From a virus, in IMG/VR virus record IMGVR_UViG_3300017991_000075, positions 1-64,000 of that record: DNA of 64,000 nt; one strand, 5' to 3'. The notes beneath the pieces are model-generated. The model did not search any database, had not been told where the DNA came from, and was given only the letters and a program-made list of their open reading frames with translations. The translations under genes were made by a program, and so were the position numbers. Of this stretch, positions 26,083 to 62,670 are shown piece by piece. Each line of letters starts with the position of its first letter. Position 1 is the first letter of the stretch.

Positions 26083-26158
26083 AACGGTTTTACCGTTACT
26101 TATGCCCCTTGAACGTTCAAGGGGCATAAGTAACGGCACTACAAATTGTAGTGCCGTT
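26083..26158. repeat. Perfect 44-bp palindrome (26093-26136) chained to two overlapping inverted repeats
   Basis: CCGTTACTTATGCCCCTTGAAC|GTTCAAGGGGCATAAGTAACGG; AACGGCACTACAA-A-TTGTAGTGCCGTT (26132-26158); AACGG-TTTTA-CCGTT (26083-26097). Confidence 0.95.
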
Positions 26159-26952: not shown

Positions 26953-27058
26953 AAACGGCAAGAAAACCGCCACGAACACAACCCGAAACGGCAAGAAAAC
27001 CGCCACGAACACAACCCGAAACGGCAAGAAAACCGCCACGAACACAACCCGAAACGGC
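26953..27058. repeat. 33-bp tandem repeat x3.2 (AAACGGCAAGAAAACCGCCACGAACACAACCCG)
   Basis: Three identical units with no spacers; internal 11-bp sub-periodicity. Confidence 0.95.
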
Positions 27059-27193: not shown

Positions 27194-28186
27194 CTACTCC
27201 CATAGCCAATCAGGCTCTGACGCCGATGCAAGCACCCTTTGACGGTCTCCCACAGACAGGTCGTTCCAGTCTTTTTCAACGGGTGTTCGTGCCAGGATTG
27301 CCCGTTTTCCGTGCCCAAGAAAAGCCCTGCATACGGCAGCGCTCTCAGAACGGGCGTCCGGATCGAACCCAAGAATGATTTGACGGGCTGGATGCTGCAA
27401 CAACAGACCGAATTGAGCAAGGCTAATGCTCTTACCGAAACAACTGATCGCCGGATAACCTGCCTGCTCCACAGCCCATGCATTGAAAACACCTTCTACC
27501 ACCACAACCGTATCAGCCTGCTCCCACCGATCATAGTTGTACAGGAACTGCGACTTACTGAGAGGTACATCCTTGTTGCTGGGGTTCAGATACTTGAGCT
27601 TCGGATTGAAACGTTTACCGTGATCCCACGCCTGAAAGTAGACGAAGGCCCCGCCGACATAAACCGGCAGACAGGTCCTCTCTCGATACTTACCTGTCAC
27701 GAAATACCCAGCACGCATGCCAAGAAAAAGATCAGGATCGAAACCACGATCAATGATCTCCTGAGCACTCTCGATCGCCGTATCAAGAGCCGCTTCATAT
27801 GGTGGAGTCTGCCCATGCCACATCAGACCTTCAACCTCAAGGTGCTGCAGGTAATCCGGGTCGGCCATTTCCGTAGCCTGGTTATTCCTGAACTCCTCGA
27901 ACATCTCTGCGATAAGATGCGGGTAACGAACATGATCGTCATCAGCAGCGTTGAACATCCGCCTGGCGCTGGCGTAGGTGATGTCCTCGTACTCGGCAAC
28001 AAGTGTTATACCGGTGCCGCCCATACCGCAGCGATAACAGATGAAACGATTCTTTCTAGCGTTGAACCAGAGCTTGAGTTCACGGCCGCAGAAGGGGCAA
28101 TCGAACTTGTACTCCTCGTCATCGCTGCCACGGAACGCAAGGTTGCGCTGTGCCCACTCAAGGATTTTATGGCCGATTTCAGACAT
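27194..28186 (-). CDS. DNA primase (Zn finger + TOPRIM)
   Basis: CPFC...CYRC; KYLNP; VVVEGVFNA; GFDPDA; KDWND. Confidence 0.9.
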   Translation of the reverse strand: MSEIGHKILEWAQRNLAFRGSDDEEYKFDCPFCGRELKLWFNARKNRFICYRCGMGGTGITLVAEYEDITYASARRMFNAADDDHVRYPHLIAEMFEEFRNNQATEMADPDYLQHLEVEGLMWHGQTPPYEAALDTAIESAQEIIDRGFDPDLFLGMRAGYFVTGKYRERTCLPVYVGGAFVYFQAWDHGKRFNPKLKYLNPSNKDVPLSKSQFLYNYDRWEQADTVVVVEGVFNAWAVEQAGYPAISCFGKSISLAQFGLLLQHPARQIILGFDPDARSESAAVCRAFLGHGKRAILARTPVEKDWNDLSVGDRQRVLASASEPDWLWE

Positions 28187-28746
28187 TAGAACGGTGTCCA
28201 GTCATCAGGGCAGGCAGGAACAACACCCCATATGCGATTCGGCATCTGATCGTTCACAAGAATGCAATCAGGCAAACCGTATTTTTCTTCAAGATAATCC
28301 CGGATCGCTTTCCATTTGACATGCCAAAAACTATCCGGCTGATTGTAGGTCTGCGACTCAACAAAACGAGCGTCCGTTTTTTCGATTATTTCACGCAGCT
28401 CCTGAGACCGGATGAAGAAAAACTTCACTTGCCGCTCAAACGCTTCTGCAATCGACAGCTTGAACCAACACTTGCGTTTACCGTCGCCATTCATGCTGCT
28501 GGTACGATGCCGCTGATACACGACCACGCAGTAAACCTTATCCTCCTTGAGGCACTCGTTGAACTGAGGAGCTTTGATCACGACACGATAGTATTCATGA
28601 CAACAGGCTTTGACCTCGATAAACGGCTCCTGAAGATCAAACCGCTCACGCACGACTTTCTCAGCCAAGGACCCGGAGGTAGCGGTTCCCTTATGCTGCT
28701 GCTGCCAATACTCAGGCGTGAAAATCTTTTTCCTACGCTTGGCCAC
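28186..28746 (-). CDS. Hypothetical protein
   Basis: 186 aa, translationally coupled (TAATG) between helicase and primase. Confidence 0.65.
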   Translation of the reverse strand: MAKRRKKIFTPEYWQQQHKGTATSGSLAEKVVRERFDLQEPFIEVKACCHEYYRVVIKAPQFNECLKEDKVYCVVVYQRHRTSSMNGDGKRKCWFKLSIAEAFERQVKFFFIRSQELREIIEKTDARFVESQTYNQPDSFWHVKWKAIRDYLEEKYGLPDCILVNDQMPNRIWGVVPACPDDWTPF

Positions 28747-30145
28747 TTTGTTGCCCGTTCAAAAATCCAAGCATCTGATCCTTACCCGGCAAAGGATAAG
28801 CACCCGCATTACCCTTTCTCTCTTTCTCTTCGAGACGTGCCAGGTTGAAATCGATGTTGAACATCAGTTCGTGATATTTAGGGCCAACACGATTCTTTGC
28901 CACGAACAACCGCATCTGGCCCATGTTGTACTCGACATCCGTCTGACAGATCGCAAGAATCACATCAGCTATCGCAGCCTTCTCAAAACACGCTGCAAGA
29001 TCCTGAAGCGTAACACGTTCCTTTTTCGATCCCTCACGATTTGTCTGCGTAGCTGTCACCAACGCCGCATCGAACTCAACAGCGATGCCACGGAGCTGCG
29101 TGTATAGATCAGCCAGCGCATCGTACTTGCTATCCCGTTTCGGCAGCTTCATGAGATCAGGGTAATCAAGCACGATGGCATCGATCTTGTGACCCCAATG
29201 AGCCTGCACTGTATTCAGAAACCCGTAGAGATCCTCGATTGCCAGCTTTCCTGTTGCAAACTCACCGAGAAAAAGCCTGGCTGTAGTGTTGTCTCTGAGG
29301 AAATGCACCCAATTCCAAACATCCTGAAAACGAGCCCGAAACTCCTGCGGGGGAATGCCAGTCAAACAGGCGAGCACCTTCTGCAGAATCAGCGCCTGAC
29401 TTTGTTCGAGCGTAACATGAACGACTTTCTTTCCCTGCTTCAGCATCGCCGCCGCACATGCCGCGAGCACTGTGCTCTTGCCTCTGTTCGGGGGACCTTC
29501 AAACAACAGCATCTCTTTACGGCCAGGACCGCCTGCGATACAGGAATCTATCGAGTTGATACCAAGCGGCACCGGATAACGAGGATCTTGAATGACAGCA
29601 GCCTGATATGTGAAATCGGCATCCCTGAACAGATCCATCCCCACCTGAAGACCGCCGCCGATGCTACTGATGTCCTTGAGTTTGTCAGCAAAACGAATCA
29701 CATCGATCTCACGACCTTGATCGATGTTCTCCTTCATCTCGACAACCATGCCGCGACACGCCTGTTCTTTCGCCCACTCATACACCTGGGTACGAACGTA
29801 ATCTGCATCGAGCATCGGAGCGTCAAACAGCGCCTGTTCGATCATCTGCATCTGAGCTTCGGCCTGCGGCTGCTCCGCCTCCATTCGAGCGGCAACATAC
29901 CTTTGCCGCTCAAGCTCAAACACGGAACGTACACACGGTGATCGGTACTTGTCGTAATAGCTATAGATGATCTCGACGGCTTGAACCAGGTAGATCCCAC
30001 CGAGCCCGGTACTGAAGAACTCAGGAGGCACGCAGCCTCTAACAACACTGAGAAAGTGAACATCTCTCGCCAACAACTTCACAACCGACTGAGAGAACGT
30101 TGGCGGAAACCGTTCAGCTCTTAGAAATTCTTCTGAGCTGCTCAT
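28733..30145 (-). CDS. dnaB: Replicative DnaB-like (SF4) helicase
   Basis: GPPNRGKS (Walker A), VTLEQ, VLDYPDLM, TATQTNR, AKNRVG; likely start MSSSEE at 30145. Confidence 0.9.
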   Translation of the reverse strand: MSSSEEFLRAERFPPTFSQSVVKLLARDVHFLSVVRGCVPPEFFSTGLGGIYLVQAVEIIYSYYDKYRSPCVRSVFELERQRYVAARMEAEQPQAEAQMQMIEQALFDAPMLDADYVRTQVYEWAKEQACRGMVVEMKENIDQGREIDVIRFADKLKDISSIGGGLQVGMDLFRDADFTYQAAVIQDPRYPVPLGINSIDSCIAGGPGRKEMLLFEGPPNRGKSTVLAACAAAMLKQGKKVVHVTLEQSQALILQKVLACLTGIPPQEFRARFQDVWNWVHFLRDNTTARLFLGEFATGKLAIEDLYGFLNTVQAHWGHKIDAIVLDYPDLMKLPKRDSKYDALADLYTQLRGIAVEFDAALVTATQTNREGSKKERVTLQDLAACFEKAAIADVILAICQTDVEYNMGQMRLFVAKNRVGPKYHELMFNIDFNLARLEEKERKGNAGAYPLPGKDQMLGFLNGQQSGQA

Positions 30146-30746
30146 TACGAATCCTTCTGACCATTTCAGTAAACTCGGTATCGGCGGCGAACTGCTCGCA
30201 GACTTGTCGCACACCATCCAGGTAACTTCCCTGGAGCTGCCCTTCGTTCAGCAGCTTGATAAACGTTTCATCTGTCGCCAGAAAATAGGGCGACATCCCG
30301 CCAGCACTCATGCGCATCAACAATTCATAGTCGCTACCGAACAGCGCCTGATTCTGTTCAATCAACTGTAGAGTGCAAGTAATATCATTCCGGATCAAGT
30401 CCGCGTAGGTGTCGTTCATCGGGTGGCACTTGTTCAGCGGCTTGTAAGCCCGGTACTGCAAATACTTCGATCTGCAGTCCTGTGTGTTCAGATACTTCGG
30501 GCCTCTGAAGCGGGGCTTCAACCAAGGCACGCAGACTTGCAGGTAATCTTTCGACCAGATCCCCATCGTCAGGCACCACTGAAACATATTGTAAAACGTC
30601 GCGTAGTTCTTGCGCTGTTCGACAGATTTACCGGAACGACGATTGAAGATGTAGACAACGATGCCGTGTGCCTCGTGATACCGGCGCTCGTACAAGTCGA
30701 AGAGAGACCTGATAATCCTGTTCAACTCTTGCTGATCGTACTGCAT
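30114..30746 (-). CDS. Hypothetical protein upstream of the helicase (possible loader)
   Basis: Likely start MQYDQQ at 30746; the longer ORF-track start runs through a terminator and promoter. Confidence 0.6.
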   Translation of the reverse strand: MQYDQQELNRIIRSLFDLYERRYHEAHGIVVYIFNRRSGKSVEQRKNYATFYNMFQWCLTMGIWSKDYLQVCVPWLKPRFRGPKYLNTQDCRSKYLQYRAYKPLNKCHPMNDTYADLIRNDITCTLQLIEQNQALFGSDYELLMRMSAGGMSPYFLATDETFIKLLNEGQLQGSYLDGVRQVCEQFAADTEFTEMVRRIRNEQLRRISKS

Positions 30747-30758
30747 CACAATCTCAAG

Positions 30759-30798
30759 AAAAAACCTCTGGCAGATGCTGTGACCCATCTGCCAGAGG
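30759..30798 (-). terminator. Intrinsic terminator/attenuator in the leader of the helicase-primase operon
   Basis: CCTCTGGCAGATG-GGTCACAG-CATCTGCCAGAGG-TTTTTT (13-bp perfect stem + U6). Confidence 0.8.
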
Positions 30799-30866
30799 CA
30801 CCCCCGTGCGCTAAATGACACGAGTTTATAGCTTCTTGCGCCGGTCACAGGCGGCTTAGATGAAGG

Positions 30867-30933
30867 AAGATACTTTGACACGATAACATGTCAAGAATTT
30901 TTCTGTTGACAGGCCCCGATTTCGTTCTACCTT
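30867..30933. promoter_or_regulatory. Back-to-back promoters: leftward TTGACA-N16-TATCTT (30894-30867), rightward TTGACA-N16-TACCTT (30906-30933)
   Basis: Perfect -35 boxes at the strand switch; an inverted TTGACA-N8-TGTCAA (30875-30894) overlaps the leftward one. Confidence 0.7.
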
Positions 30934-31072
30934 TAGTGCAGCTACAGTGCTGCAGTGTACGAGGTTTTTTGATTGAACAGAATTCGGTCGCCCCATCCCT
31001 CGAAGCACTGTAGCTAGTCCTTCCTTGAGCCTCGGCACAAGAGGATGGGGTGGCCTCCGTGACAGGGCCGGG

Positions 31073-31438
31073 ATGCAGTACGACTCTGCGAGTAATGTAC
31101 CGTCAGGACCTCGGACATATTTTCCGAAGGAGATCCCGGCCCATTGTCACATACCTCAATACATCCTCCAGGATCAACGTCTAACTGATTTCGAAAAAAT
31201 CCTATTCGGAAGACTCCGAGGATACGCTGGCGAAAAGCATTACTGCTTCGTCAAAGTCACGACCCTGATGGAGGAACTCTGCAAGTCAAGACGAGTCATC
31301 TATCGTGCGGTCGAATCGCTCGTAAAATTCGGCTACCTTTATAAATACCGCGCACACCCTCGTGCAACTACCAACTACTATTTCATCATCACACCGGAGA
31401 TAGACCTCTGGTTGAATGCAACGTCAAAAAGGGTTTGA
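31073..31438 (+). CDS. Winged-HTH (HTH_36-like) replication initiator/origin-binding protein
   Basis: IPQYILQDQRLTDFEKILFGRL...CFVKVTTLMEELCKSRRVIYRAVESLVKFGYL...TNYY; iterons follow immediately. Confidence 0.75.
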   Translation: MQYDSASNVPSGPRTYFPKEIPAHCHIPQYILQDQRLTDFEKILFGRLRGYAGEKHYCFVKVTTLMEELCKSRRVIYRAVESLVKFGYLYKYRAHPRATTNYYFIITPEIDLWLNATSKRV

Positions 31439-31660
31439 GGTGCCAAAAATGACACCCTTACAAATGCTCTCATCGCAATTTGAGGTGCCAAAAATGGCAC
31501 CTGCCCTTGTGCCAAAAATGGCACCTGTTAGTGTCAAAAATGGCACCTCAAAAGTGTCAAAAATGGCACCTCCTAAAACAAGGACTTATAAACAGGGATT
31601 TCAAACAGGGAGTCTTTTATTCTAAAGAATAAAAGAGCAGCTCGCCTTGCGGCTCGCTGT
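31439..31660. other. Putative replication origin: 5 palindromic iterons GTGYCAAAAATGRCACC plus an AT-rich palindrome
   Basis: Units start at 31440, 31485, 31509, 31531, 31554; TCTTTTATTCT-AA-AGAATAAAAGA at 31613-31636; small GC hairpin after it. Confidence 0.7.
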
Positions 31661-31682
31661 CATGAGATTTGAATTTTGAAAT

Positions 31683-33059
31683 ATGAGAGAGACGATCAAA
31701 ATAATCGAACACGGTCCCGTCACAAGAATCGTTCTTCCTGTGTCGGCATCCATCTATGACCGCTCCTCAATTTCCCTGGCGGCTAAACAAGCTGTCACCG
31801 CATGGAACAACGAAGGACGTGCGTTCGATTATTTCGACTCGATGAACATGACGCTGCTACGCGGACATACTCCTCGTGTAGTTCGTGCGTTAGAAGCACA
31901 CGGCTACAGCGTGTCATGGGAGATGACGACGCCGGCCCAGGAGAAGTTCATCTTCGGAGATCCGGTTGGCGAGTTACGGAATCTCCAGGAGTGGGGTGTG
32001 GGTGAAATGCTGAAGCACTACTACGGCATCATCTCTTTCGGGTGTCGTTTCGGTAAGAGCTACACCTACGCCGGGTGGTGGTGCGCTCGTGGTAGGCCCA
32101 GGACGATTATCTTCGCGCACACCGAGAAGATCTGCTCGCAGATGCATGAGGAGCTTTCGGAATGGCTCGGTGAGCCTGTGGGGGTTGTTGCACGGACTAC
32201 GGGGATCAAGGACAACTGGCAAAGACTTACCATCGCATGCGACAAATCATTTTTTGACAAAGAGCGCCAGCTCCTTCCGGACCACAAACCGTATCTGCTG
32301 AACACCGAAGCGATCATCCGTGATGAGTGCCACCAGTTCGGAGAACTCGGCGGTCTGATTTACGACCACTGTCCGAATCTGATTTACTCGTGGGGAGGTT
32401 CGGCAACTCCGTTCAAGAAACAGCCTGAAAAGGATCTTCTCATCGAAGGGTACTGCGGGCCGCTACGGGCCGAAGCCCCGGCAAAGATTTTAGCCGACCA
32501 CGGAATCGTGGCAATGCTTGTATGTCGGTGGAAACGAATATACCATCGGCCGATCATATGGGACACCTGGAACGTGTTGCGTGATAACGCGATCGTACAC
32601 AACTTCGAACGCAACAATGAGATCGCGAAGATATGCCATCACCACCGCGACCAGGGGCTGCGTGGGATCGTATTCGTCGATCGCGTGCCCCACGGGCAAA
32701 ACCTGGAGGCTTTACTGCCTGGCTCGGTGTTCGTAAGTTCGACGACAATGAGTAAGGCACAACGGGACGACTCTCTCAAAAAATTCAATCGCGGAGAGCT
32801 GCATACTGTTGTGACTACAAAAGTTTGGCGAGAAGGAGTCACGTTTTACGCGGACTATGCAATCAACGCAGAAGGTGGTCGAGCCGATCATGTCAACATA
32901 CAAAAAGCGGGGCGTCCATTGATGCCACGGACTGACGGAACCGCTGTTGCTTGGTATGACTTCATCGATCACGGGATCGATAAGCTGTACGATCACTCAG
33001 TAGACCGATATGACTGCATGACAAACGAGGGCTGGGAACAGGAGATACTCGATGGCTAA
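31683..33059 (+). CDS. Superfamily 2 helicase (UvsW/XPB-like)
   Basis: CRFGKS, IIRDECH, GGSATP, IVFVDRV, WREG, IQKAGR. Confidence 0.85.
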   Translation: MRETIKIIEHGPVTRIVLPVSASIYDRSSISLAAKQAVTAWNNEGRAFDYFDSMNMTLLRGHTPRVVRALEAHGYSVSWEMTTPAQEKFIFGDPVGELRNLQEWGVGEMLKHYYGIISFGCRFGKSYTYAGWWCARGRPRTIIFAHTEKICSQMHEELSEWLGEPVGVVARTTGIKDNWQRLTIACDKSFFDKERQLLPDHKPYLLNTEAIIRDECHQFGELGGLIYDHCPNLIYSWGGSATPFKKQPEKDLLIEGYCGPLRAEAPAKILADHGIVAMLVCRWKRIYHRPIIWDTWNVLRDNAIVHNFERNNEIAKICHHHRDQGLRGIVFVDRVPHGQNLEALLPGSVFVSSTTMSKAQRDDSLKKFNRGELHTVVTTKVWREGVTFYADYAINAEGGRADHVNIQKAGRPLMPRTDGTAVAWYDFIDHGIDKLYDHSVDRYDCMTNEGWEQEILDG

Positions 33060-38804: not shown

Positions 38805-39589
38805 GATACGACTTCATCATCGGTATAGACCCCGGCTATGCGACACTCGGCCTCGCCATAATCGACCTGCGTAACGGTCGTCCTCAATTCGTTCACATGA
38901 GTTCAGCTCTTACCGTAAAAACGGTAAAGGCCCCCACCTCTAAAGAAAAGAAACAACTCAAGATCAAATTTCCGATTGAAGAATTTCAAGAACGCGAAGA
39001 GACCTTTCAACGAATCAATTTACTCGCTGACTATGTTCGAGGGGCTATACGCCACGTATGTAACCCAATATTCAAACTGAATGCTCTTATAGTCATTGAA
39101 GAATGGACCGCCAGTCCGAACGCTAGGTACGTAAAAACGATCTACTATCGTGGTGCGGCTGATGCGGCTGTTCGCCAGGTAGTCAACATGTACGGCGCAC
39201 AGACTCTAACGGTTGACAATATCTGGGTGAATCAGTTCTCCAACGTACAGGGCAAGAAAACAATCGACAAAGACAATCCGACACCTATGGAGATCCTGTT
39301 GTGCATACAAATGTTGTGTCCTTGGCTCAACGGATTTGACGTACAACAATGGCTCGAACATCGTGGCACCGCGCATACATTGAATGGTTCAAGACAGCAA
39401 AAGGGGGTTCCCGAAAAGGCCAAACTACACTATGCTGATGCTGCGGTGATGGCCACCATGGGAGTCCTGGCAATCGATCCAGATCTCGCAGGCCAACGCC
39501 CGCCAAATCAGATGGAGAAACTATCGTACCTGTGGGAGCGCCTGCGTGAAGTCCAAGACCATGATCTTCGACAACGAAGCGGCAACTGA
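38801..39589 (+). CDS. RuvC-like Holliday junction resolvase
   Basis: IIGIDPGYATLG, IVIEE, HYADA. Confidence 0.75.
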   Translation: MRYDFIIGIDPGYATLGLAIIDLRNGRPQFVHMSSALTVKTVKAPTSKEKKQLKIKFPIEEFQEREETFQRINLLADYVRGAIRHVCNPIFKLNALIVIEEWTASPNARYVKTIYYRGAADAAVRQVVNMYGAQTLTVDNIWVNQFSNVQGKKTIDKDNPTPMEILLCIQMLCPWLNGFDVQQWLEHRGTAHTLNGSRQQKGVPEKAKLHYADAAVMATMGVLAIDPDLAGQRPPNQMEKLSYLWERLREVQDHDLRQRSGN

Positions 39590-40445
39590 GCTGGTACTCC
39601 AGATCAAAGAGCGTAATGCTCAAATCGCTTCCTTCTCAAAACAACGTGATCAAGCACCCCATATCCTGCAGGAGCTGCACGGTGAATTCTACGACCACTG
39701 TCAGCCGTTCCTGAGATCTGCTGTCCGTGAATTCGCTAAGGGTGCCAACATTCAGGATCACGAAGATCTTGCGCAGGATGCCTTCCTGAAGATCCTTCGA
39801 ATGATCGATCGCTACAGTCCGAAAAAGGGTCGCCTCCACAACTGGATGACCAAGATCACCAGAAACTTGTGCTGGGATTGGCTCCGGAAGAAAAAACCGC
39901 AGCTCCTGGCAGAGGGACTGCCCAAGGACACTCTCTCGATCGAACTAAAACTCGACGGCGAGTATAACTTTCCTCTGAACTTCGATCGCAAACCGAGTCC
40001 GGAGAACTTGATCGAGGATCGCAAGAAAGTCGATAACTACCTTGACAAAGAAGACTACGATATCATCAAAGATTCGTTTCCGTTCTACGTCAGCGATCGC
40101 CTGATGTTCGATCTACTAACCACCGTCGAACGACACCGCTTCACAGCCTGCCCGGCCTGCGTCGAAGACGTGCTTGCGCTACTTGAAGAAGAAGAAATCG
40201 ATTACACCGAGTATGGCAAGCCCGTAGAGATGGTGAACGCGACCATCATCCTGCTACGAGGGTTATTGATGCGAGTGATCAATCGAGCTGACATCATCAA
40301 GATGGCTCTGATCAAAAACCCGGAATTCAACGAACTCCGGGTCTTGACGAGATTCCTGGGTCTGGAAACAACGGAAAAACTGATCCTGCTACTGGGGGGA
40401 CTCAGGATACAACTCCCAGCCCCAAGACAATTCTACCGAGATTAG
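39561..40445 (+). CDS. Phage sigma factor (region 2) with C-terminal Mor-like motif
   Basis: DHEDLAQDAFLKILRMIDRYSPKKGRLHNWMTKITRNLCWDWLRK; C-terminal LGLETTEKLILLLGGLRIQLP. Confidence 0.8.
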   Translation: MIFDNEAATELVLQIKERNAQIASFSKQRDQAPHILQELHGEFYDHCQPFLRSAVREFAKGANIQDHEDLAQDAFLKILRMIDRYSPKKGRLHNWMTKITRNLCWDWLRKKKPQLLAEGLPKDTLSIELKLDGEYNFPLNFDRKPSPENLIEDRKKVDNYLDKEDYDIIKDSFPFYVSDRLMFDLLTTVERHRFTACPACVEDVLALLEEEEIDYTEYGKPVEMVNATIILLRGLLMRVINRADIIKMALIKNPEFNELRVLTRFLGLETTEKLILLLGGLRIQLPAPRQFYRD

Positions 40446-53169: not shown

Positions 53170-56100
53170 CTAGATCGTAGTTCCTCCAGTCGCACCTAAC
53201 GGATTACCCGCTGACATAGGCGCTCCAGAACGCATGAGTTCAATGATCGTATCCAGGCGCTTCTCAGTTCCACGCATTGAAGCCCTGAACGCTTCCTCGG
53301 TTTCCTTGATGGCGACCGTCGTGGTCCCAGAGATTACACCACGGATCTCTTCAGTGGAAGCCACTGCATCATCAACCGTGTCCTTGATGATTTCTGCGCT
53401 GCCCTGCAGGTTAGAGAGGAAGCCCGTCGCTATAGCGAGAAGACCCATAGCCGCAGCGGCTAGAGTCTTGTCAAAAACTTTGGTCAACAGGGCAGATAGC
53501 CCGCTCTCAGCAGCGTTCACCAGATAAGCGATAGCCTTGTCCGTCAGATCGTCGAAGATCTTCTTGGCGAACATACTGATCCTGTACAACGTCGCATTGA
53601 ATGAATTACCTGTCTCCTCAGCGGCTTTTCTAGCTGCATCGACAGCTTTGTTCGCCGAACCATCGATGACTCCGGTTATGGTGTCACCAAGAGCGGCACC
53701 GATCGGTGCTGCAATATTGCTATGTATGAACGGGTAGACCTCGACCTGACGCATTGCATCTTCGATGGTCTCCTTGACTTCCGCCGATATATCGCCGGCA
53801 GTAGCTGTTGAAAAATCGAAATCAGAATCGAGAGTAATGCCTTCCTTGGCAAGCTGGAATTCCAATCTACGACGTACTGAAGCAGCCTCTAACTTGGCGG
53901 CTTCACCTTCTTTACGACCCTTGAACAGCACTGCAACACGCTCAAGCTCATTCAGTTTTCTAACAGCCTCGGCAGTTGCAATTTCTGCCGTGCGCATCTC
54001 ACGCTTCAGATCTTTGGCTTCCTTCACGCCAAAGCCAGCCGCCTCGAAACTGAAGGCATCCGGACCCGCACCGGATAGTTCTTTGATCCGGGTTTGCAGC
54101 AGTTTGTTCTGCTTTTCTTCCTCTTGCGTCGTTTCCTGCTCGGCCTGTTTACGGTACTGAGCAAGATCTACAAGAGCATGGAGACGTTCTTCAATACGTG
54201 CTTCAAGATTGTGCTGCGCTCCGGATATCTGTAACTGCTCAGCAGCATACTGAAGCCGTTTACGAACCTCTTCCGTGCTGCCCGTGAGGAGCTGCTGCAT
54301 TGTCTCGAAGACATGTACCAGACGTTCGTCTTCTGGCAGCATCGCATCAAAGATCTCGAAGCCGAGATCAGATGCGGCATCCTTTAGAATGGCACGCAGA
54401 GCTTCACGTACAGCTAAGAATTGACGACGTTCGATGCTCTTTAGATTTTCTACGATACCCGCCGTGAATGGGGCTTTCTTGACGAGAGACTCACGAATCG
54501 ATTCAGGGAGGGTTTCTCCGAATAAACCCTTGAGCATTTCTGCCATTTTATCTTCAACGTCTTCTAAAACGCTGGCAGCAACTTCGAGCCCAAACATGTC
54601 ACCTTTGACCGCACTCTTTCTGGCGTCCTGCATTACTGCGGAAATCAAGTAGAGCTGATGCCTAATCTTGTTGAGACGCTCCTCGTCACCAACACCGATT
54701 GTCTTGGCGATGTCGCTAATGGCTTTGAATCGTTCTTCTGCGGCGTCGAATCCAATTTCGGCCTCGCTGCCTATCGTGGCTTCGAGGATCTTAGAGCGTT
54801 CGGCCTGCATGCTCGCGATGGCCTGTCCAACTTTATCATAATTACCACCGAGTTCTGCAACCTTGGTGTTGTACTCTGATTGCTTCGATACAATCTCAAC
54901 AAGGCGTGTGAGAATCGCATCGAACTTATGAACGTTCTTATCTAGCTCCTTACCGAGGTTCTCCTGAATCTCGACCTGTTTCTGGACTTCAGCGGATGCA
55001 TCCTGCAGTCGCTGATCCATGTCGGCCATTTCCTGCTCGTACACGGACCCGATCTGCTGGCCGAGCCGTACCAGCTCAGGAGCATCCTTCTTGAATCCCT
55101 CAAGAGCTGCAGCACCAGCTTCTTTGAACCCTTCGTTGATTTCACCCATCATGCCGGAAGCTTGCTTACGCAACTCGCGCTGAGCTTCGACTTGTCCGGC
55201 AGTAATCGCTCCAGGATCTACCAGGCCAAGCTCCTGCATCATCCGCAGATGCTTGACCAACTCCTGTGCGGAAACCTTTTCCTTCTTGTGCAGTTCGATA
55301 TTCTTGAGAATCGTGTCACGCTGTTTTTCAAGAGCTGCCACCTGGTCCCAATAACCTTCGGTCATAGGATCGAGTAGCCGTAACTGTTCTGCTTGGGCAT
55401 CCCACACATCACGAGAAGTAACACCGAGATCACCGATGACATCCCGCAGCTCATCAACATTATTACCAATTACCTTGATGGCGTTCTCAACATTTTCAGC
55501 GGAGATACCTTCATCAACAGCGGCTTTCAATTTCTTTTGAATCCCGCCGTAGAAACTCTCGATACGTGCGGCGTCCTTTTCCTGGCGATCTATTGTGTTA
55601 CCCCAGATGTCTGCAGTTTCTGCTGCTTCTTCCTTGAGTGTGTCGATGGCATACTGTAACCCGCTAGTCAGATCACCCTCATCGACACCGATGAACGGGA
55701 TCTCTACCAGAATCGATTCCAACCCTGAAGCGATGCTCTCGATAATAACAGCAACACCAAGTTTGATCTTGTTCCACAACCATTCACCGAGAGATAGGGC
55801 GAAGTTCTTGGCAAAACTAACTGCCTTGGCAGCGAACTTGATGAACTCTGCAAGAGCGTCAATACCAGCCTTAGCCAAAGTCGATTTGATCTTCGGTGGT
55901 ATTGCCGCAAAGATCATCTCCAGCCACGTCAGCACCAGACCGCCGCCGTGTTTCAGTAACGTGTTTATAGCGCCGCCAATGAACGTGAAGAAGGCATTGG
56001 CAACGGCACTGACATCGCTCCAGAATTTCTGACTGCCATCCTTGGCCTTGATCCAATTTTCCTTGACGTAATCGAAGATCAGTCCCAAAGATCTAAATGC

Positions 56101-59100
56101 GATACGTGTGAATGCACGAACGTGTTCAAGAATCGTCGTAACCAGACTGATACCATCCGTTTCAAGGTTGCTCATCAAATTCGCGAGGAAGGGCGCTAGT
56201 TCTTCAAATATAATGATCTTGATGCGCTCGAATATCTGCTTAGAAGTCTCGATGCTGGCTTTGAATTTTTCTGCGGCCTCAATACCCTTCTTACCGATCG
56301 GCGGGATCTTTGATGCGGCAATAATGGACCCGCTGATATCAGCAGTCGCATCCATGACCGCACCACGAAGTGTGCCGAATTGAGCACCCATCGCCTGCAG
56401 AAGACGTTCTTGGTCCCTCATGCTTAGAGTGCCACTACGGAGAGCTGTAACCATCCGCATGAACATCTCGTCAGGCTTCATTTTCTGTAGATCGTTGAAT
56501 GTGATGCCCACCTTAGCGAAAATCGATGACATCTCACCGACACCGCCCTCACTAATCACCTGGGTGACTGTAGATCTCAGTGTCAGGAACGCTTGTTGCA
56601 CTTCGCTGGCATTCACGCCGAGCATCTCGAAAGCACGAGTCAAACGATCGTACTGTTCGAGATCTACATCAACAGCAACGGCCTGGCGCTGTAGCTGAAC
56701 GAGTTTGTTTGCTGTTTCATCAATAAATTTGAACAACTCATTGATGCTACTCTGAATCATGCCGGTAACAGCGCCGATCACCTTACCGACAATACCAGTG
56801 AAAACACTTACCAGACGTAATGGCAACACAGCAACAAAACCTATGAACCCGGTTAGTGCTTTTACGACCATTCCAATTGTACCGAGGATCAACCCAAGCA
56901 CGCCTTTGGTCATGCTGGACATCTTCATCAAAAGAGTGCCCGGTAAAGAGATGACTTTCTCGAAGGTGTTCGCCAACCAATTTAGTGACGATGATATTCC
57001 AGCGGTAACACCTTGAACGACCTTACCAAGACTTCCGAGCACTGTTGAAAAAGCGCCAACTATTCCCTCATTGAAAACTCTCCCTACCAGTTCTTTTAGG
57101 TAGCCGACACCTTTCAACATCTGTTCACCGACAAGAGGTCCAAACTCACGCATCTTGATAATGCCATCACGGAGTGGACCATACTTCGGCAAAGAACTCG
57201 GCATCTGATCTCTGATAGCCGCCTTTAGAATGCCGGCTGTCGCTGCCTTCAGTTTATTACCGCCAGCGACGATGCCTTTGCCGAGTTCCTGCATCATCGA
57301 AATACCGGCTTTTGATGCACCGCTGACAAATTTATTTGTTGCCGTGCCGAGATCAGCGGTCCCTTTCATCATCTGATTACCGATGATGCTGCCGAACTGC
57401 CCCATTGCCACGAAGGTTCTACGGAGGGGTCCTTTCTTTGGCATCGACGACATGAAGTAATCGGCGACTGTCTGAGCTGCATTTGCGGAAGGCTTTTCGA
57501 GACTGCGAACACCTTTCTGCATTTCAGCAGCGATAGCCTCCAGCGTGTTATGTCCGGTAGCGACGATCTTTTTAGACTTGGCAATTCCGGAGAGACTATT
57601 CTCGATCTGTTTGACAACATTCTTCATCTCTGTCGCACGGATCTTGATTTTACCGAGACCCTTCATCGACAGAGCTTCTTGAATCTTCTTGACGATATTC
57701 TCACCAGATAAACCTTCTCCAATACCCTGCAGGAAGGTCTTCATTATGAGATCTTTGATCGCCTGAGACTGTTCTCCGAACTTATCAATGCCTCTTGTCA
57801 AACCGCCAGATAGTTTCTTCTCCAGGCCGTACATAGCATCGGCAACATTGGAGAACTGCCGTAAAGTTTCGATACCGAAGTTATCAACAGCCTGGGTCGC
57901 CAAACGGCTGTTGGAGCGCATATTGTTATAAAATGCTTTGATACCTTCCGACATCTCGGCAAGCTTTGCCGGGACATCACGCTGCATCGTCGCAACAGAA
58001 CGTTGAAACGCTAGGAAAGGGTCCCCTGTGCGAGCAAGTTCCTCAGAAAACTGGAATATCTTACTGCCTCGTAGATTACTTTCGATCTTGGAACTGACGC
58101 CCTTCACAGCCTGAGCAACAGCAGCCTGGTCCTTGCCGACAGCAAGCACGCCGGCCAGCAGCTTTTGCAAGCTGAGCCCCGTCTTCTGCATATCCTTAGA
58201 AGATGTTGCCAGACCTCCGCTGAGAGCTGCGGCTTTTGTTGTCACCTCAACAGCACGACCAGCCTGTACCTCGGATACTTTACGAAGATGAGAAGCGGCT
58301 CGTTGACTTTCAGCCATATATGCTTTAGCGGCTGCTGTAGATCCCTCGACAGCCGTTGTTTTTTCAGCTAGGGCTGCTGCTGTAGTCTGTTGCTGTTTCG
58401 TAAGTGCGATCGTTGCTTCAGTATCTGAAATAGCGATCTGCTCGTTGATGTCACCACGCTGTCTTTCGAGTGTCTTCTGCACCGCATTCAGCTCGGCAGA
58501 CATTGCCTTGAGCTGCTCATCGACGGCACCGAAAGTCAATTCTCCGGATTTGAATGCTTCTGATACAGCTTCTAACTGCGTCTTCGTGAGACCTGTGGCC
58601 TGTATCAGCTCGTCGGTAACTTTCAGCTCGCCCTGTCGAAGCTGCGTCTCCATCGCCAGGATACGCTCGCCCTTATCGATCTCTGCTGCAAGAGCATCCC
58701 GTTTGGCACGCATTTCCTTGAGCGTGACAAGCTCTTGGTTACGCTCATCAATTTCAGCATTGATAGAATCGATGACAGCTTGAGAGGCCCCTTCAATCCG
58801 GGCTCTACCAACACGTTCGACACGCTCCTGCTCGTTACGAGACTGAATCGTCTTACCGAGCCGCTCGTTTAGTTTATCGGCGAGCGTATTGCCAGCAGCA
58901 ACCTCAGCGACGTTGGTATCGAGCACCTTGAACATACGCTCAAAGTTTCCACGAATCTTACCGAGCATCCTCTGGTTATCGCCGTAAGCTGTGGAGATAC
59001 GGTCGATCTCCTTGTTGAGTTCAAGGACCCTGTTGAGTTGAGCGTTGTATTGCTCGGCAAGTTTCGGCTGCACCTTACCTGTGCGCTCAATGCTGGTGTC

Positions 59101-62100
59101 GATTGCCTTCATCGTTTCTTTCAACGATGTTTGAGCTTCCTCAAATTCGGCAACTGTCGGCTCTGCTGTCTTCAGAAGATCTCGTAGAGTCACCAATTCC
59201 ACACGGGCGTCATGCAGCGCATCACGGAATACTCGCATTCCGCCTTCAGGAACGAGACCTTCGAGTTCTTCAAATGCAAAAGCAGCCTGACGTAACGCCT
59301 CATTATTCTGTTTGAGTGTTTCCTCCATTTCACCGACAAGAGCTGTCTCATCCAGCTTGCCTGACAATGATAGGATATTCTTCTTGTAGAGTTCGTTGGC
59401 GGCTTTCAAATCTGGGAATGAGCGCTCGACCTCTGACATCACTGATGTCAGACGTTCCTGCAGTTTGATAGCTTGTTTTGACTTCGCATCCCGATCCTTT
59501 TCACGGGACTCGATCATCTTGGCGCGGCCCTCTTCCAACAAAGCCAACTCGGCCTCTGCATGCAGCAGTTTGTCGAGAGCTTTATCACTGTGCTCGGCGG
59601 GCTCCTGCAGATTCTTGATCTTCTGTTTAGTAGCCTGGATCTCGGCATTGAGTTCACGAATTGTCTTAGGAACCTGAGCTGAGGCTGTACCCTTCTTCAG
59701 GAAACTAATTTCCTTTGTGAGGTTCTTACTCTCCGCATCGAGCTTCATGAAATCGGCACTGAGTTTCTTTGCCTCCTTCGCAGCAGGACCAAGATCCTCC
59801 ATCAACATAGCGTACATCATGCCGAGCTTCTTACCGGCCTTAGTATTGTCCGCCAGGTTGAGAACCATCCCCTTTGTAGCAGCCTCAAGTTTTTCAGCCG
59901 CTTTTGTTATATCGATCTGAAACTCGGTCTCTTCAGCAAGTTCTGTTTCAGCTTTAGCGAACTCAGCCTTGAGTGAAGCGCTGATCTGTTTCTGACGAGA
60001 TGCCATCTGCGTGACGACATCCTGCACAACCTTCGCAGCGAATGCCCGATCAACTTCACCGGCCAGACGTTCTTCCTTGGCTCCTGCGGTTTCACGCCGA
60101 ACACGACCACCACGAGCCATCCGTTCGATCGGTTTTTCGATGACGACGCCAAGGGTCTTACCGAACCATGTGATAAACGGACCCATGATCGTTTTGAAAT
60201 CAGCGCCGACATCTTCCCAGGTCTGCACCATGCGCTGTTCAAAATTCTTAGCAAACTCTTCGGCACGATCGATACGGGCCTTCTGATCCTTATCAGAAGC
60301 AAAAGACCCCATCGTGAGAAGACCGCTCGCGAACGTACGAGCGAAACCAACCAGTTTGCCAAACCCTTTGAACAATGTTCCACCAACCCACTTGCCGACA
60401 GCAGCCAGGCCCTGGAACGATTTTTTGATGCTTTGGATAGACAGATCGACCGTCTTGATCGCTGTAGAGAACGAACGGGCAAACAGCCTGCCAAGCTGTG
60501 CGCCCATATTGATCATGACCTTCTTTGCGGCGGCTTTGCTGAATGGGGCAACCAACGCTAGTAATATCGCATTCTTAGCGAGACCTACGCCATCACCGAT
60601 GTGCTCACCGATATCACGCCCGACTCTCGCGAGAGCCCCTATAAATCCCGGTTGTTTCGCAGCTTCACGAATCGTGTCACCGAGACTACGAGCAAGATCT
60701 ACAGGAACGCCGAACACCTCAGCAATTTTTACACGGGCTGCAACGAACGCCCGCTTGAAAGCAAGCCCAAGAGGTTCGGTGATGTGTTTGCTGATAAGAG
60801 CACCGATATACACACCAACGCGGACAATACCCGGCTTCACCGTGTCGAATGCTGATTTCAAAAGCGCGGGGATGCCTTTGACAATATTGAAGATGCCACG
60901 AATGACGAGAGGACCAAGAGAAGCGCCGAGGGCGATCCCTATAATATCCATGTTCTCGGTGACGACAGATAACAAAGAATTGAACGCCTGTTCAGCGTAT
61001 ACCGGTACGGATGCGCTGATGATGCCTAGTTGTGAGAGAGACCAGTCCCAAAAGTAAGAAAGCCACTGCCGAGCTTCAGATATCTTGATGCGGAGGGTGT
61101 TCATAACCCCTCCCATCCAGATACTTGCATCACGGTTGGCGTCATTTAGGAAGTTCTCAAGCTTCGTTTTCTGCGCAGCATCTGTACCAAAAACAAGTGC
61201 TCCGAAGACTCCGCCTGCTGCCATAGCAGCCATGGTCGTTGTCGTTCGGAGCAGCACTCTGCCGATCTTCATTACGGTGGACTTTGCTTTACCGACCGCG
61301 CTAGTAGTATCGACAGTCTTGAAACTGAATGCAGAGCCGATCGTTTTTCCGAGTTGCTTGAATCGGCCCTCTACCTTGTCTGCGCCGTCTATCGCATCCC
61401 GCGCCCCCTTTCGACCGATACGCTCGAATGTCGATACACCGACATCGCGCACGCCGAGGATCGCCTTGACAATGCGGTCCATTCCCTTTTCCATGCGTTT
61501 CACCAGATCATCGATTTGTCTACCGAGCATCTGTACGACCCGCATACCATCCATGATAGTCGTCTGTACCTGTTTCACCTTCTTGATGAAACCACCCTTG
61601 GCGAACTCCCGGATTAGCTTCGCAATCGGCTTTGCGTTGTCAGCAATCGCCCCCATGATCGGGAACATCTGACGAATGGCTCTCAAGAACAATGTCGTTG
61701 CAGCACGGCCATCACCGGCTGCAGCTCGAAGTCTTAGTATAAAAGCACTGATTCTTGTAGCGAACAAACGAACAGCGAACATCACCGTTGTAAACACGCC
61801 TACCATCGGCGTAATAACACCAGTAAATCCAACGACCTGAGCCGTCAACAATTTCATGCTGACGGTTGCTGTCGTTAGTAATGACGTTATCAAACCAAAA
61901 CGTTCAACGAAAATCTTCGTCCTGTATAACAACCCAATCAAACCGTCGTTCAATGCCGCGATAAGGGAGGCAAATCGTGCCAAAGTGCTTTCTGGTTTAC
62001 GCCCGAGGAACCGCAAAAACAGACTCGTTAGACCCTTCATACCGCCAAAGATCAGTCCTGTCGTTGCTACGATACCGAGCAAACTCTGTGATATGTTGGT

Positions 62101-62670
62101 CAAGAAACCAAGCAGCCCCTTGAAGTCGAGCGTTATGATGGCTGTAACAATGTTCTTCAGTATCTCTGCAAGAGAACCACCACCTTCAATTGCAGAACGG
62201 AGGACACCGGGTATCAATGCTCTAATATCAAATCCCGCTTTTACCAGCCGTTCAACAAGAGCTGTAACACCGAGGATGCTACCTAGCACCAACGGGCTCA
62301 CACGACGAGCACCTTCAGTGATTATTCTGAATACTTTCGTAACGCCATCCTCAGCATCCTGTCCAACATCCTTGACCTGTTTGCCGAGCCCTTTAGTGAT
62401 CTGAGTTTGAACGTTGCCGAGTTTGCCGTCGAGCATGTCAAAGAAATTTGTTGTGATCTTGGCGAACTTCTCAGCGAGATCCGACATGACCGTGATCTTA
62501 TCAGCGATCTGATCGAGAGCCGTGATGGCCTTGTCATCGATCTTGACTTGAATCGGTTTACGGCCGGTGAGAACCTTGTCAAGGCGTTCACCGATTTTGT
62601 CCAGTTGCTTGAAAACCTGATCGAGGTTCGATTGGAATTCGATTGCAACCTGTCCGATATTGATCGCCAT
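53170..62670 (-). CDS. Tail tape measure protein (3166 aa)
   Basis: MAINIGQVAIEF start; long helical Ala/Gly/Ile-rich and coiled-coil regions; directly after the frameshifted chaperone pair. Confidence 0.92.
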   Translation of the reverse strand: MAINIGQVAIEFQSNLDQVFKQLDKIGERLDKVLTGRKPIQVKIDDKAITALDQIADKITVMSDLAEKFAKITTNFFDMLDGKLGNVQTQITKGLGKQVKDVGQDAEDGVTKVFRIITEGARRVSPLVLGSILGVTALVERLVKAGFDIRALIPGVLRSAIEGGGSLAEILKNIVTAIITLDFKGLLGFLTNISQSLLGIVATTGLIFGGMKGLTSLFLRFLGRKPESTLARFASLIAALNDGLIGLLYRTKIFVERFGLITSLLTTATVSMKLLTAQVVGFTGVITPMVGVFTTVMFAVRLFATRISAFILRLRAAAGDGRAATTLFLRAIRQMFPIMGAIADNAKPIAKLIREFAKGGFIKKVKQVQTTIMDGMRVVQMLGRQIDDLVKRMEKGMDRIVKAILGVRDVGVSTFERIGRKGARDAIDGADKVEGRFKQLGKTIGSAFSFKTVDTTSAVGKAKSTVMKIGRVLLRTTTTMAAMAAGGVFGALVFGTDAAQKTKLENFLNDANRDASIWMGGVMNTLRIKISEARQWLSYFWDWSLSQLGIISASVPVYAEQAFNSLLSVVTENMDIIGIALGASLGPLVIRGIFNIVKGIPALLKSAFDTVKPGIVRVGVYIGALISKHITEPLGLAFKRAFVAARVKIAEVFGVPVDLARSLGDTIREAAKQPGFIGALARVGRDIGEHIGDGVGLAKNAILLALVAPFSKAAAKKVMINMGAQLGRLFARSFSTAIKTVDLSIQSIKKSFQGLAAVGKWVGGTLFKGFGKLVGFARTFASGLLTMGSFASDKDQKARIDRAEEFAKNFEQRMVQTWEDVGADFKTIMGPFITWFGKTLGVVIEKPIERMARGGRVRRETAGAKEERLAGEVDRAFAAKVVQDVVTQMASRQKQISASLKAEFAKAETELAEETEFQIDITKAAEKLEAATKGMVLNLADNTKAGKKLGMMYAMLMEDLGPAAKEAKKLSADFMKLDAESKNLTKEISFLKKGTASAQVPKTIRELNAEIQATKQKIKNLQEPAEHSDKALDKLLHAEAELALLEEGRAKMIESREKDRDAKSKQAIKLQERLTSVMSEVERSFPDLKAANELYKKNILSLSGKLDETALVGEMEETLKQNNEALRQAAFAFEELEGLVPEGGMRVFRDALHDARVELVTLRDLLKTAEPTVAEFEEAQTSLKETMKAIDTSIERTGKVQPKLAEQYNAQLNRVLELNKEIDRISTAYGDNQRMLGKIRGNFERMFKVLDTNVAEVAAGNTLADKLNERLGKTIQSRNEQERVERVGRARIEGASQAVIDSINAEIDERNQELVTLKEMRAKRDALAAEIDKGERILAMETQLRQGELKVTDELIQATGLTKTQLEAVSEAFKSGELTFGAVDEQLKAMSAELNAVQKTLERQRGDINEQIAISDTEATIALTKQQQTTAAALAEKTTAVEGSTAAAKAYMAESQRAASHLRKVSEVQAGRAVEVTTKAAALSGGLATSSKDMQKTGLSLQKLLAGVLAVGKDQAAVAQAVKGVSSKIESNLRGSKIFQFSEELARTGDPFLAFQRSVATMQRDVPAKLAEMSEGIKAFYNNMRSNSRLATQAVDNFGIETLRQFSNVADAMYGLEKKLSGGLTRGIDKFGEQSQAIKDLIMKTFLQGIGEGLSGENIVKKIQEALSMKGLGKIKIRATEMKNVVKQIENSLSGIAKSKKIVATGHNTLEAIAAEMQKGVRSLEKPSANAAQTVADYFMSSMPKKGPLRRTFVAMGQFGSIIGNQMMKGTADLGTATNKFVSGASKAGISMMQELGKGIVAGGNKLKAATAGILKAAIRDQMPSSLPKYGPLRDGIIKMREFGPLVGEQMLKGVGYLKELVGRVFNEGIVGAFSTVLGSLGKVVQGVTAGISSSLNWLANTFEKVISLPGTLLMKMSSMTKGVLGLILGTIGMVVKALTGFIGFVAVLPLRLVSVFTGIVGKVIGAVTGMIQSSINELFKFIDETANKLVQLQRQAVAVDVDLEQYDRLTRAFEMLGVNASEVQQAFLTLRSTVTQVISEGGVGEMSSIFAKVGITFNDLQKMKPDEMFMRMVTALRSGTLSMRDQERLLQAMGAQFGTLRGAVMDATADISGSIIAASKIPPIGKKGIEAAEKFKASIETSKQIFERIKIIIFEELAPFLANLMSNLETDGISLVTTILEHVRAFTRIAFRSLGLIFDYVKENWIKAKDGSQKFWSDVSAVANAFFTFIGGAINTLLKHGGGLVLTWLEMIFAAIPPKIKSTLAKAGIDALAEFIKFAAKAVSFAKNFALSLGEWLWNKIKLGVAVIIESIASGLESILVEIPFIGVDEGDLTSGLQYAIDTLKEEAAETADIWGNTIDRQEKDAARIESFYGGIQKKLKAAVDEGISAENVENAIKVIGNNVDELRDVIGDLGVTSRDVWDAQAEQLRLLDPMTEGYWDQVAALEKQRDTILKNIELHKKEKVSAQELVKHLRMMQELGLVDPGAITAGQVEAQRELRKQASGMMGEINEGFKEAGAAALEGFKKDAPELVRLGQQIGSVYEQEMADMDQRLQDASAEVQKQVEIQENLGKELDKNVHKFDAILTRLVEIVSKQSEYNTKVAELGGNYDKVGQAIASMQAERSKILEATIGSEAEIGFDAAEERFKAISDIAKTIGVGDEERLNKIRHQLYLISAVMQDARKSAVKGDMFGLEVAASVLEDVEDKMAEMLKGLFGETLPESIRESLVKKAPFTAGIVENLKSIERRQFLAVREALRAILKDAASDLGFEIFDAMLPEDERLVHVFETMQQLLTGSTEEVRKRLQYAAEQLQISGAQHNLEARIEERLHALVDLAQYRKQAEQETTQEEEKQNKLLQTRIKELSGAGPDAFSFEAAGFGVKEAKDLKREMRTAEIATAEAVRKLNELERVAVLFKGRKEGEAAKLEAASVRRRLEFQLAKEGITLDSDFDFSTATAGDISAEVKETIEDAMRQVEVYPFIHSNIAAPIGAALGDTITGVIDGSANKAVDAARKAAEETGNSFNATLYRISMFAKKIFDDLTDKAIAYLVNAAESGLSALLTKVFDKTLAAAAMGLLAIATGFLSNLQGSAEIIKDTVDDAVASTEEIRGVISGTTTVAIKETEEAFRASMRGTEKRLDTIIELMRSGAPMSAGNPLGATGGTTI

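Follow-up and report, generated by a model that had tools for sequence, protein, structure and literature searches.

In the helicase-primase operon of an uncultured, large tailed phage, a strong intrinsic terminator stands immediately ahead of the first gene, and the loop of this terminator is fully complementary to a sequence in a small 5′ hairpin of the same leader. We read this leader, with a rough probability of 0.45, as a promoter-proximal attenuator for the helicase-primase operon that would release an RNA of ~102 nt. Computation shows the presence of the elements, their folding energies and the likeness of one leader site to the origin iterons, on which this reading draws. The window covers the initial 64 kb of a viral contig that is 99,054 nt long and judged ~82% complete; the phage is a singleton without a close relative and looks lytic. 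Within the window the leader sits in a 326-bp control region between divergent gene sets, which comprise the following genes and origin elements.

27194..28186, minus strand: DnaG-type primase with zinc ribbon and Toprim, the last gene of the operon (phrog_47, E = 3.9e-36)
28186-28746, minus strand: gp186, a 186-aa ORF between helicase and primase
28733..30217, minus strand: DnaB-like replicative helicase (phrog_19, E = 1.4e-62)
30114..30746, minus strand: gp210, the first gene downstream of the leader, with its ATG at 30746 and no function assigned
31073..31438, plus strand: divergent HTH_36 protein of 121 aa, the likely replication initiator
31434..31572, plus strand: five palindromic iterons GTG[CT]CAAAAATG[GA]CAC, the likely origin
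39546-40445, plus strand: sigma-70-family gene, the last of the rightward replication/recombination operon (Sigma70_r2, E = 6.5e-16)

Leftward, the four genes of the operon are thus ordered gp210, DnaB, gp186 and primase, and rightward the HTH_36 gene is followed by the five iterons, recombination and repair genes and the sigma-70-family gene. For gp210, neither Pfam nor PHROG gave a match and a search of 5.8 billion proteins returned no homologue; the protein bears a faint resemblance to helicase loaders of the T4 gp59 type. The iterons lie directly after the stop of the HTH_36 gene, and an A/T-rich palindrome (31613-31636) lies beyond them (31434-31640); the iteron region adjoining the HTH_36 gene is likely the replication origin. 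The sigma-70-family gene likely encodes the late sigma factor of the phage. Because the phage carries this gene of its own, and neither a T7-type polymerase (a weak negative, as control genomes gave no match either) nor a Q-type antiterminator (PF06530 and PF03589, both absent from the ~82% complete 99-kb record) was detected, the control region is most likely transcribed by the host core RNA polymerase, which obeys intrinsic terminators. Both divergent first genes open with the same 12 nt, GATGCAGTACGA (30736-30747, minus strand; 31072-31083, plus strand), which has only these two copies in the genome, and both proteins start with MQYD. Downstream of the primase gene, terminator-like sites at 27140-27102 precede a non-coding island. 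Also 3′ of this gene, a 40-nt terminator-like segment occurs twice, in overlapping copies 33 nt apart (26968-27040, minus strand), and more terminator-like hairpins reach up to 27215. A perfect 44-bp palindrome with 19-bp arms around AACGTT (26093-26136) lies inside a 1.9-kb gene-poor island. Elsewhere in the window, a 3166-aa ORF (53170-62670, minus strand) has a tape-measure-like match only in its center and is unusually long for a tail protein.

The leader itself, with its promoter, contains the following elements.

30895..30905, no strand: 11 A/T-rich bp separating the divergent −35 hexamers, UP-element-like in sequence and possibly in function
30889..30894, minus strand: −35 hexamer TTGACA of the leftward promoter
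30867..30872, minus strand: −10 hexamer TATCTT of the leftward promoter, with a 16-nt spacer from the −35
30840..30855, minus strand: hairpin 1, GCCG/CGGC, with loop CCUGUGAC, containing CUGUGACC (30850-30843); −4.3 kcal/mol
30803..30824, minus strand: hairpin 2, 7 bp; −7.4 kcal/mol
30764..30799, minus strand: intrinsic terminator hairpin; −25.2 to −27.2 kcal/mol
30778..30785, minus strand: terminator loop GGUCACAG, 8 nt, exact complement of 30850-30843
30759..30764, minus strand: U6 tract, the expected 3′ end of a ~102-nt RNA
30744..30751, minus strand: UUGUGAUG over the gp210 start codon, a weak second partner for the terminator loop; −6.9 kcal/mol

The first-pass annotation had placed a leftward promoter, and about 65 nt after it a 13-bp terminator with U6, ahead of the first gene, within a structured leader of the helicase-primase operon. 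A sigma-70-type promoter, a structured leader of ~100 nt and a strong terminator do directly precede the first gene; the stem has 13 Watson-Crick pairs and one G-U, and the distance was about right, since it measures 61-68 nt according to the points between which it is counted. The promoter, which is of the sigma-70 type by its hexamers and by a spacing within 16-18 bp, matches 10 of the 12 sigma-70 positions, with a perfect −35 and a weak −10 (4/6), and the start is predicted near 30861-30860 (A30861). We regard the promoter as credible. The pattern TTGACA-N16-TAYCTT occurs only twice in 99 kb, both occurrences forming a back-to-back pair here, and the 16-nt spacing agrees with that of the other TTGACA promoters in this phage. 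No second sigma-70-like promoter was seen by eye inside or 3′ of the terminator hairpin. A 60-aa minus-strand ORF over the promoter region (30856-31038) had no family match and was judged non-coding. As for the terminator, its 8 G-C pairs, 8-nt loop and U6 tract are those of an intrinsic (Rho-independent) terminator; with −25.2 kcal/mol it ranks first in stability among 65 candidates in the 99-kb genome, and 17 nt separate the end of its U6 tract from the gp210 ATG. Its loop of 8 nt is large, the other strong terminators of this phage having mostly 3-6 nt. The fold of the leader was also better than that of shuffled sequences (z = −3.6, 0/200 shuffles as good).

The same annotation had claimed that the whole terminator loop is the exact complement of 30843-30850, and this was confirmed base for base. 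It had further placed the partner, CUGUGACC, in a 5′ hairpin GCCG...CGGC, where it does lie, but not all of it is loop: since CUGUGACC consists of 7 loop bases and the first base of the 3′ arm of hairpin 1, a pure loop-loop kiss would be 7 bp. The match between GGUCACAG and CUGUGACC is bounded exactly by the edges of the terminator loop, because the flanking bases give C-C and G-G mismatches. The terminator-loop bases are unpaired with a probability of 0.98-1.0, and the loop duplex has an energy of −12.3 kcal/mol for 8 bp and −9.0 kcal/mol for 7 bp. Upon shuffling of the 62-nt upstream leader, an 8-mer complement was obtained with P = 0.0010 and a 7-mer or longer one with P = 0.0068. Genome-wide, 0.26 cases of full-loop complement were expected and one was seen (57 perfect hairpins with 8-nt loops); for loops of at least 8 nt, 3 cases were seen versus 0.34 expected, and the two 9-nt cases elsewhere look accidental. 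Because 0.26 such cases are expected in the genome, the 8-nt match, although uncommon, is not significant genome-wide by itself and is only suggestive.

These genome-wide counts weigh against the attenuator, as does the weakness of hairpin 1 (−4.3 kcal/mol, pair probability only 0.33), and they fit a plain promoter-proximal terminator, which would serve as a constitutive damper or simply yield a short RNA and whose loop complementarity would be coincidental and without function. We consider such a coincidence rather unlikely. The nominal P for the terminator of this leader is 0.001, and the match is not only bounded exactly by one loop but also falls in the loop of another hairpin. Moreover, the only other T-run hairpin of the region (30930-30970, plus strand) likewise has a perfect 12-nt loop complement, 52 nt away, and full-loop complements were absent both from the 54 strong terminators examined in 29 distant DnaB loci and from 16 candidates in 15 further ones (44 distant DnaB loci in all).

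Nascent folding bears on both readings. In an 84-nt intermediate, in which the terminator loop has been made and the 3′ arm has not, the 8-mer helix is present in both the minimum-energy and the centroid fold (−29.1 kcal/mol), and it extends via nine interrupted pairs onto the 5′ arm of the terminator, enclosing hairpin 2. Nine of the 14 bases of this arm are thereby paired, anchored by the 8-mer helix, with the extension itself being weak. The antiterminator potential, −10.6 kcal/mol, ranks fourth of 84 terminators. Compared with shuffled sequences, however, the alternative fold is not unusual (z = −1.2), which suits coincidence and counts against the attenuator; and as the terminator fold exceeds it in stability by 14 kcal/mol, it should not alone prevent termination. 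By these fold energies the RNA should terminate by default. A further point against the attenuator is that the 8-mer pairing has no overlap with the terminator stem. The pairing does not look like a classical antiterminator, touching the terminator loop only and extending weakly onto the 5′ arm. A ribosome-mediated attenuator was rejected: neither a separate leader-peptide ORF with its own stop nor a ribosome-binding site was recognized, and the only open frame runs into gp210.

The attenuator that we favor would work as follows. Host RNA polymerase with sigma-70 would start near 30861, and the nascent RNA would fold the small 5′ hairpin and then the second hairpin. The polymerase would next reach an intrinsic terminator that no other candidate in the genome exceeds in strength, 17 nt ahead of the first start codon, where most transcripts would stop in the U-tract (~30759-30764) and free the ~102-nt RNA; gp210, DnaB, gp186 and primase would then be expressed from read-through transcripts only. 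The loop pairing would have an early and a late stage. Before the 3′ arm is transcribed, the loop bases and CUGUGACC would anchor a long-range helix that loosely holds the 5′ arm of the terminator; once the terminator has folded, a kissing contact of 7-8 bp would tie the 5′ hairpin to the terminator tip. This contact may set or gate the fraction of read-through, and it may also stabilize the released RNA. That the pairing occurs in vivo, and in which direction it acts, is our inference. The weak −10 hexamer speaks against the attenuator, as does the fact that the start and end of the RNA are so far predictions. If the loop-loop contact is functional, it would be a compact way of tuning an intrinsic terminator via its loop rather than its stem, and it would control the timing of helicase and primase production by the phage through an element that matched no known RNA family. 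By prediction, this ~100-nt element depends on a promoter of the host type (sigma-70) and on intrinsic termination.

The middle of the three hairpins had been listed by the first-pass annotation as a further RNA structure. It is present, but it is better explained, at least partly, as an iteron-like DNA site, and two elements related to the origin iterons were located in the region.

30806..30821, no strand: iteron-like palindrome GTGCGCTAAATGACAC, found with the iteron matrix, a candidate operator for the HTH_36 initiator
30874..30881, minus strand: half-iteron GTGTCAAA in the spacer of the leftward promoter

With a matrix built from the five iterons, GTGCGCTAAATGACAC was the top match outside the origin in the 99-kb genome, scoring 14.3 versus 12.0 for the next. 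It agrees with an iteron at 13 of 16 positions, is in register with the iteron dyad and coincides with hairpin 2. TGACACGA is repeated, 60 bp apart, and GTG[CT]CA[AT][AT] outside the origin has two occurrences in this region (P = 0.003, a post hoc count). On account of this match to the iterons of the neighboring origin, the middle hairpin is likely an initiator operator, and the neighboring HTH_36 initiator probably binds the leader DNA at this site. From the iteron-like sites that coincide with the middle hairpin and lie within the promoter spacer, the initiator would probably feed back on the operon, and this candidate site would couple the levels of the origin protein to the supply of helicase and primase.

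The palindrome also lies midway between the two 8-mers (center 30813.5 versus 30814.0 for the 8-mer pair), and this symmetry, which fits a DNA-level arrangement as well as an RNA one, tells against the attenuator. The inverted 8-mers and the central iteron-like palindrome might thus be protein sites that control the divergent promoters or an origin-linked complex, with the initiator in the center and flanking sites 32.5 bp (~3 helical turns) on each side; the RNA complementarity would then be a by-product, and the terminator loop would be the only free place for a site. Besides the coincident centers, such an arrangement draws on the half-iterons in the promoter spacer, on the G-Y-Y-ACAG common to all four inverted-repeat arms (G[CT]NACAG is densest genome-wide here, a post hoc observation) and on the similar center-to-center spacing of both inverted-repeat pairs, 65 and 64 bp. 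Yet the 8-mers are unlike iterons, the core common to both pairs (5/7 identical) is expected by chance in about one third of cases by our estimate, CTGTGACC is not enriched elsewhere, and no candidate protein for the 8-mers is known. In addition, two of the seven pairs of hairpin 2 are G-U pairs, which hold only in the minus-strand RNA. We regard a purely DNA-level role as improbable.

Promoter, structured leader, terminator and dependence on the host polymerase together make the choice proposed at the outset, between an attenuator and a released small RNA, the right frame, whereas nothing points to the riboswitch-like gate that had been mentioned with it. The ~102-nt terminated RNA could itself be the product, namely a trans-acting small RNA whose loops pair with other copies or with nascent or read-through leaders. 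It would come from a promoter-to-terminator unit whose 5′-proximal hairpin, U6 tail and AAGAAG stretch are in keeping with an RNA that is stable and possibly bound by Hfq. The weak second partner of the terminator loop over the start codon also favors this proposal, but the pairing with UUGUGAU there comprises 6-7 bp and falls short of significance (any random 44-mer: P = 0.16-0.23). With other transcripts of the phage the RNA showed no complementarity above chance, as the search for trans targets in the phage gave only chance-level 10-12-mers, and in cis each loop would be taken up by the other. The literature offers precedents (PMC4825925, PMC11979758): the RNA could act like IsrK on its own read-through form, or like the P4 CI RNA on seqA/seqC. 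Rfam gave no C4 or IsrK match, which is a point against this proposal, and overall we think that a trans-acting product has little chance of being the main role of the leader.

It also counts against the attenuator that no relative close enough for comparison was found. Searched with blastn against phage records, the phage DNA had no match. DnaB searches of viral, metagenome and genome contigs with a single sequence and with an alignment gave only matches that were 21-42% identical and had unrelated gene order; the nearest DnaB relatives were P0003 at 41% and P0004 at 35% identity. A search of viral contigs for the iteron pattern found nothing. The annotation had not recognized the leader as a known RNA family, and Rfam agrees: over 30000-31800, cmscan at E ≤ 10 returned two weak and irrelevant matches only, neither of them in the leader. 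By this criterion the leader falls outside the C4/CI, IsrK and guanidine-IV families. In the literature searched, no description was found of a 5′ hairpin that kisses its own terminator loop in phage leaders. In the leader, the loop of the 5′ hairpin does complement that of a terminator hairpin immediately ahead of the first gene. We propose tentatively, as something that may well be so but at less than even odds, that the leader exemplifies a widespread group of phage RNA gates, which was not found in the literature searched and in which the loop of a 5′ hairpin makes a kissing contact with that of a promoter-proximal terminator before replication genes. Here the gate would be combined with a built-in initiator operator, and the supply of helicase and primase would be set jointly by the RNA contact and by origin-protein occupancy.

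Among known systems, the PR′-6S RNA-tR′ unit of lambda is the closest in layout: closely behind a constitutive promoter of the host type comes a strong intrinsic terminator that yields a short RNA, and a long operon behind the terminator is expressed only via read-through, which in lambda is released by Q. In the phage studied here, by contrast, no Q-family gene was found and no qut or pause element was recognized, the operon consists of replication genes rather than late genes, and the loop-loop complementarity has no lambda counterpart. Lambda oop RNA is a short leftward RNA with a strong terminator that starts just upstream of, and divergent from, the gene of an iteron-binding initiator, a layout which the leader RNA resembles; oop, however, is antisense to cII, whereas the RNA here is antisense to no gene and lies in the sense leader of the operon. 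In guanidine-IV (the mepA motif) and other kissing-loop riboswitches, two hairpin loops pair beside an intrinsic terminator. Here the terminator loop is itself a partner, and neither a conserved ligand pocket nor related sequences nor an Rfam match was found. In the autoregulation of plasmid iteron initiators (F RepE, pSC101 RepA), a degenerate or half iteron lies at a promoter away from the origin. The candidate site of this phage, known from the sequence only, shares this position but lies in the leader of the helicase-primase operon and not at the initiator's own promoter.

Premature termination ahead of replication genes is also known for the CI RNA of P4, in whose immunity system (seqB, seqA and seqC) short complementary words in the untranslated leader of a primase-helicase operon are coupled to termination (PMC4825925). 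The leader studied here differs in that one partner is the terminator's own loop and in that it shows no sign of processing; and since the phage looks lytic, there is no immunity context. The prophage leader RNA IsrK of Gifsy-1 has a terminated form and a read-through mRNA with a common 5′ part, and pairing between these forms decides downstream gene expression (PMC4825925); the leader here would likewise have two such forms but has no sequence or model match to IsrK. A terminator loop that engages in a kissing complex has been described for OxyS (PMC11979758), which, like the P4 and IsrK leaders, is a precedent in favor of the attenuator.

Perfect TTGACA-N16/17 promoter-like sites also occur at four other places, all in promoter-terminator modules of the 84-92-kb region. 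These sites (84.6-91.5 kb, outside the window) read TTGACA-N16/17-TAnnAT and stand next to strong terminators (n = 4). Two of them, near 88.97 and 91.43 kb, have a −10 hexamer that shares bases with the terminator hairpin; the other two, near 84.63 and 86.02 kb, have the terminator just upstream of the promoter-like site, and three of the four sites have an AGGAG-type ribosome-binding site and an ATG downstream. A tRNA transcribed from the promoter near 86.0 kb was rejected, as ARAGORN finds none.

On the plus strand, the control region holds a mirror unit with TTGACA (30906-30911), 16 nt and TACCTT (30928-30933). The plus-strand T-run hairpin (30930-30970) overlaps this −10, so the predicted start near 30940 falls inside the hairpin. 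The plus-strand transcript would begin with 12 nt (30940-30951) to which 31004-31015 is perfectly complementary (−20 kcal/mol), and 30947-30954 can pair instead with the start-codon region at 31075-31082 (−14.3 kcal/mol). The mirror unit is possibly a translational switch for the initiator gene.
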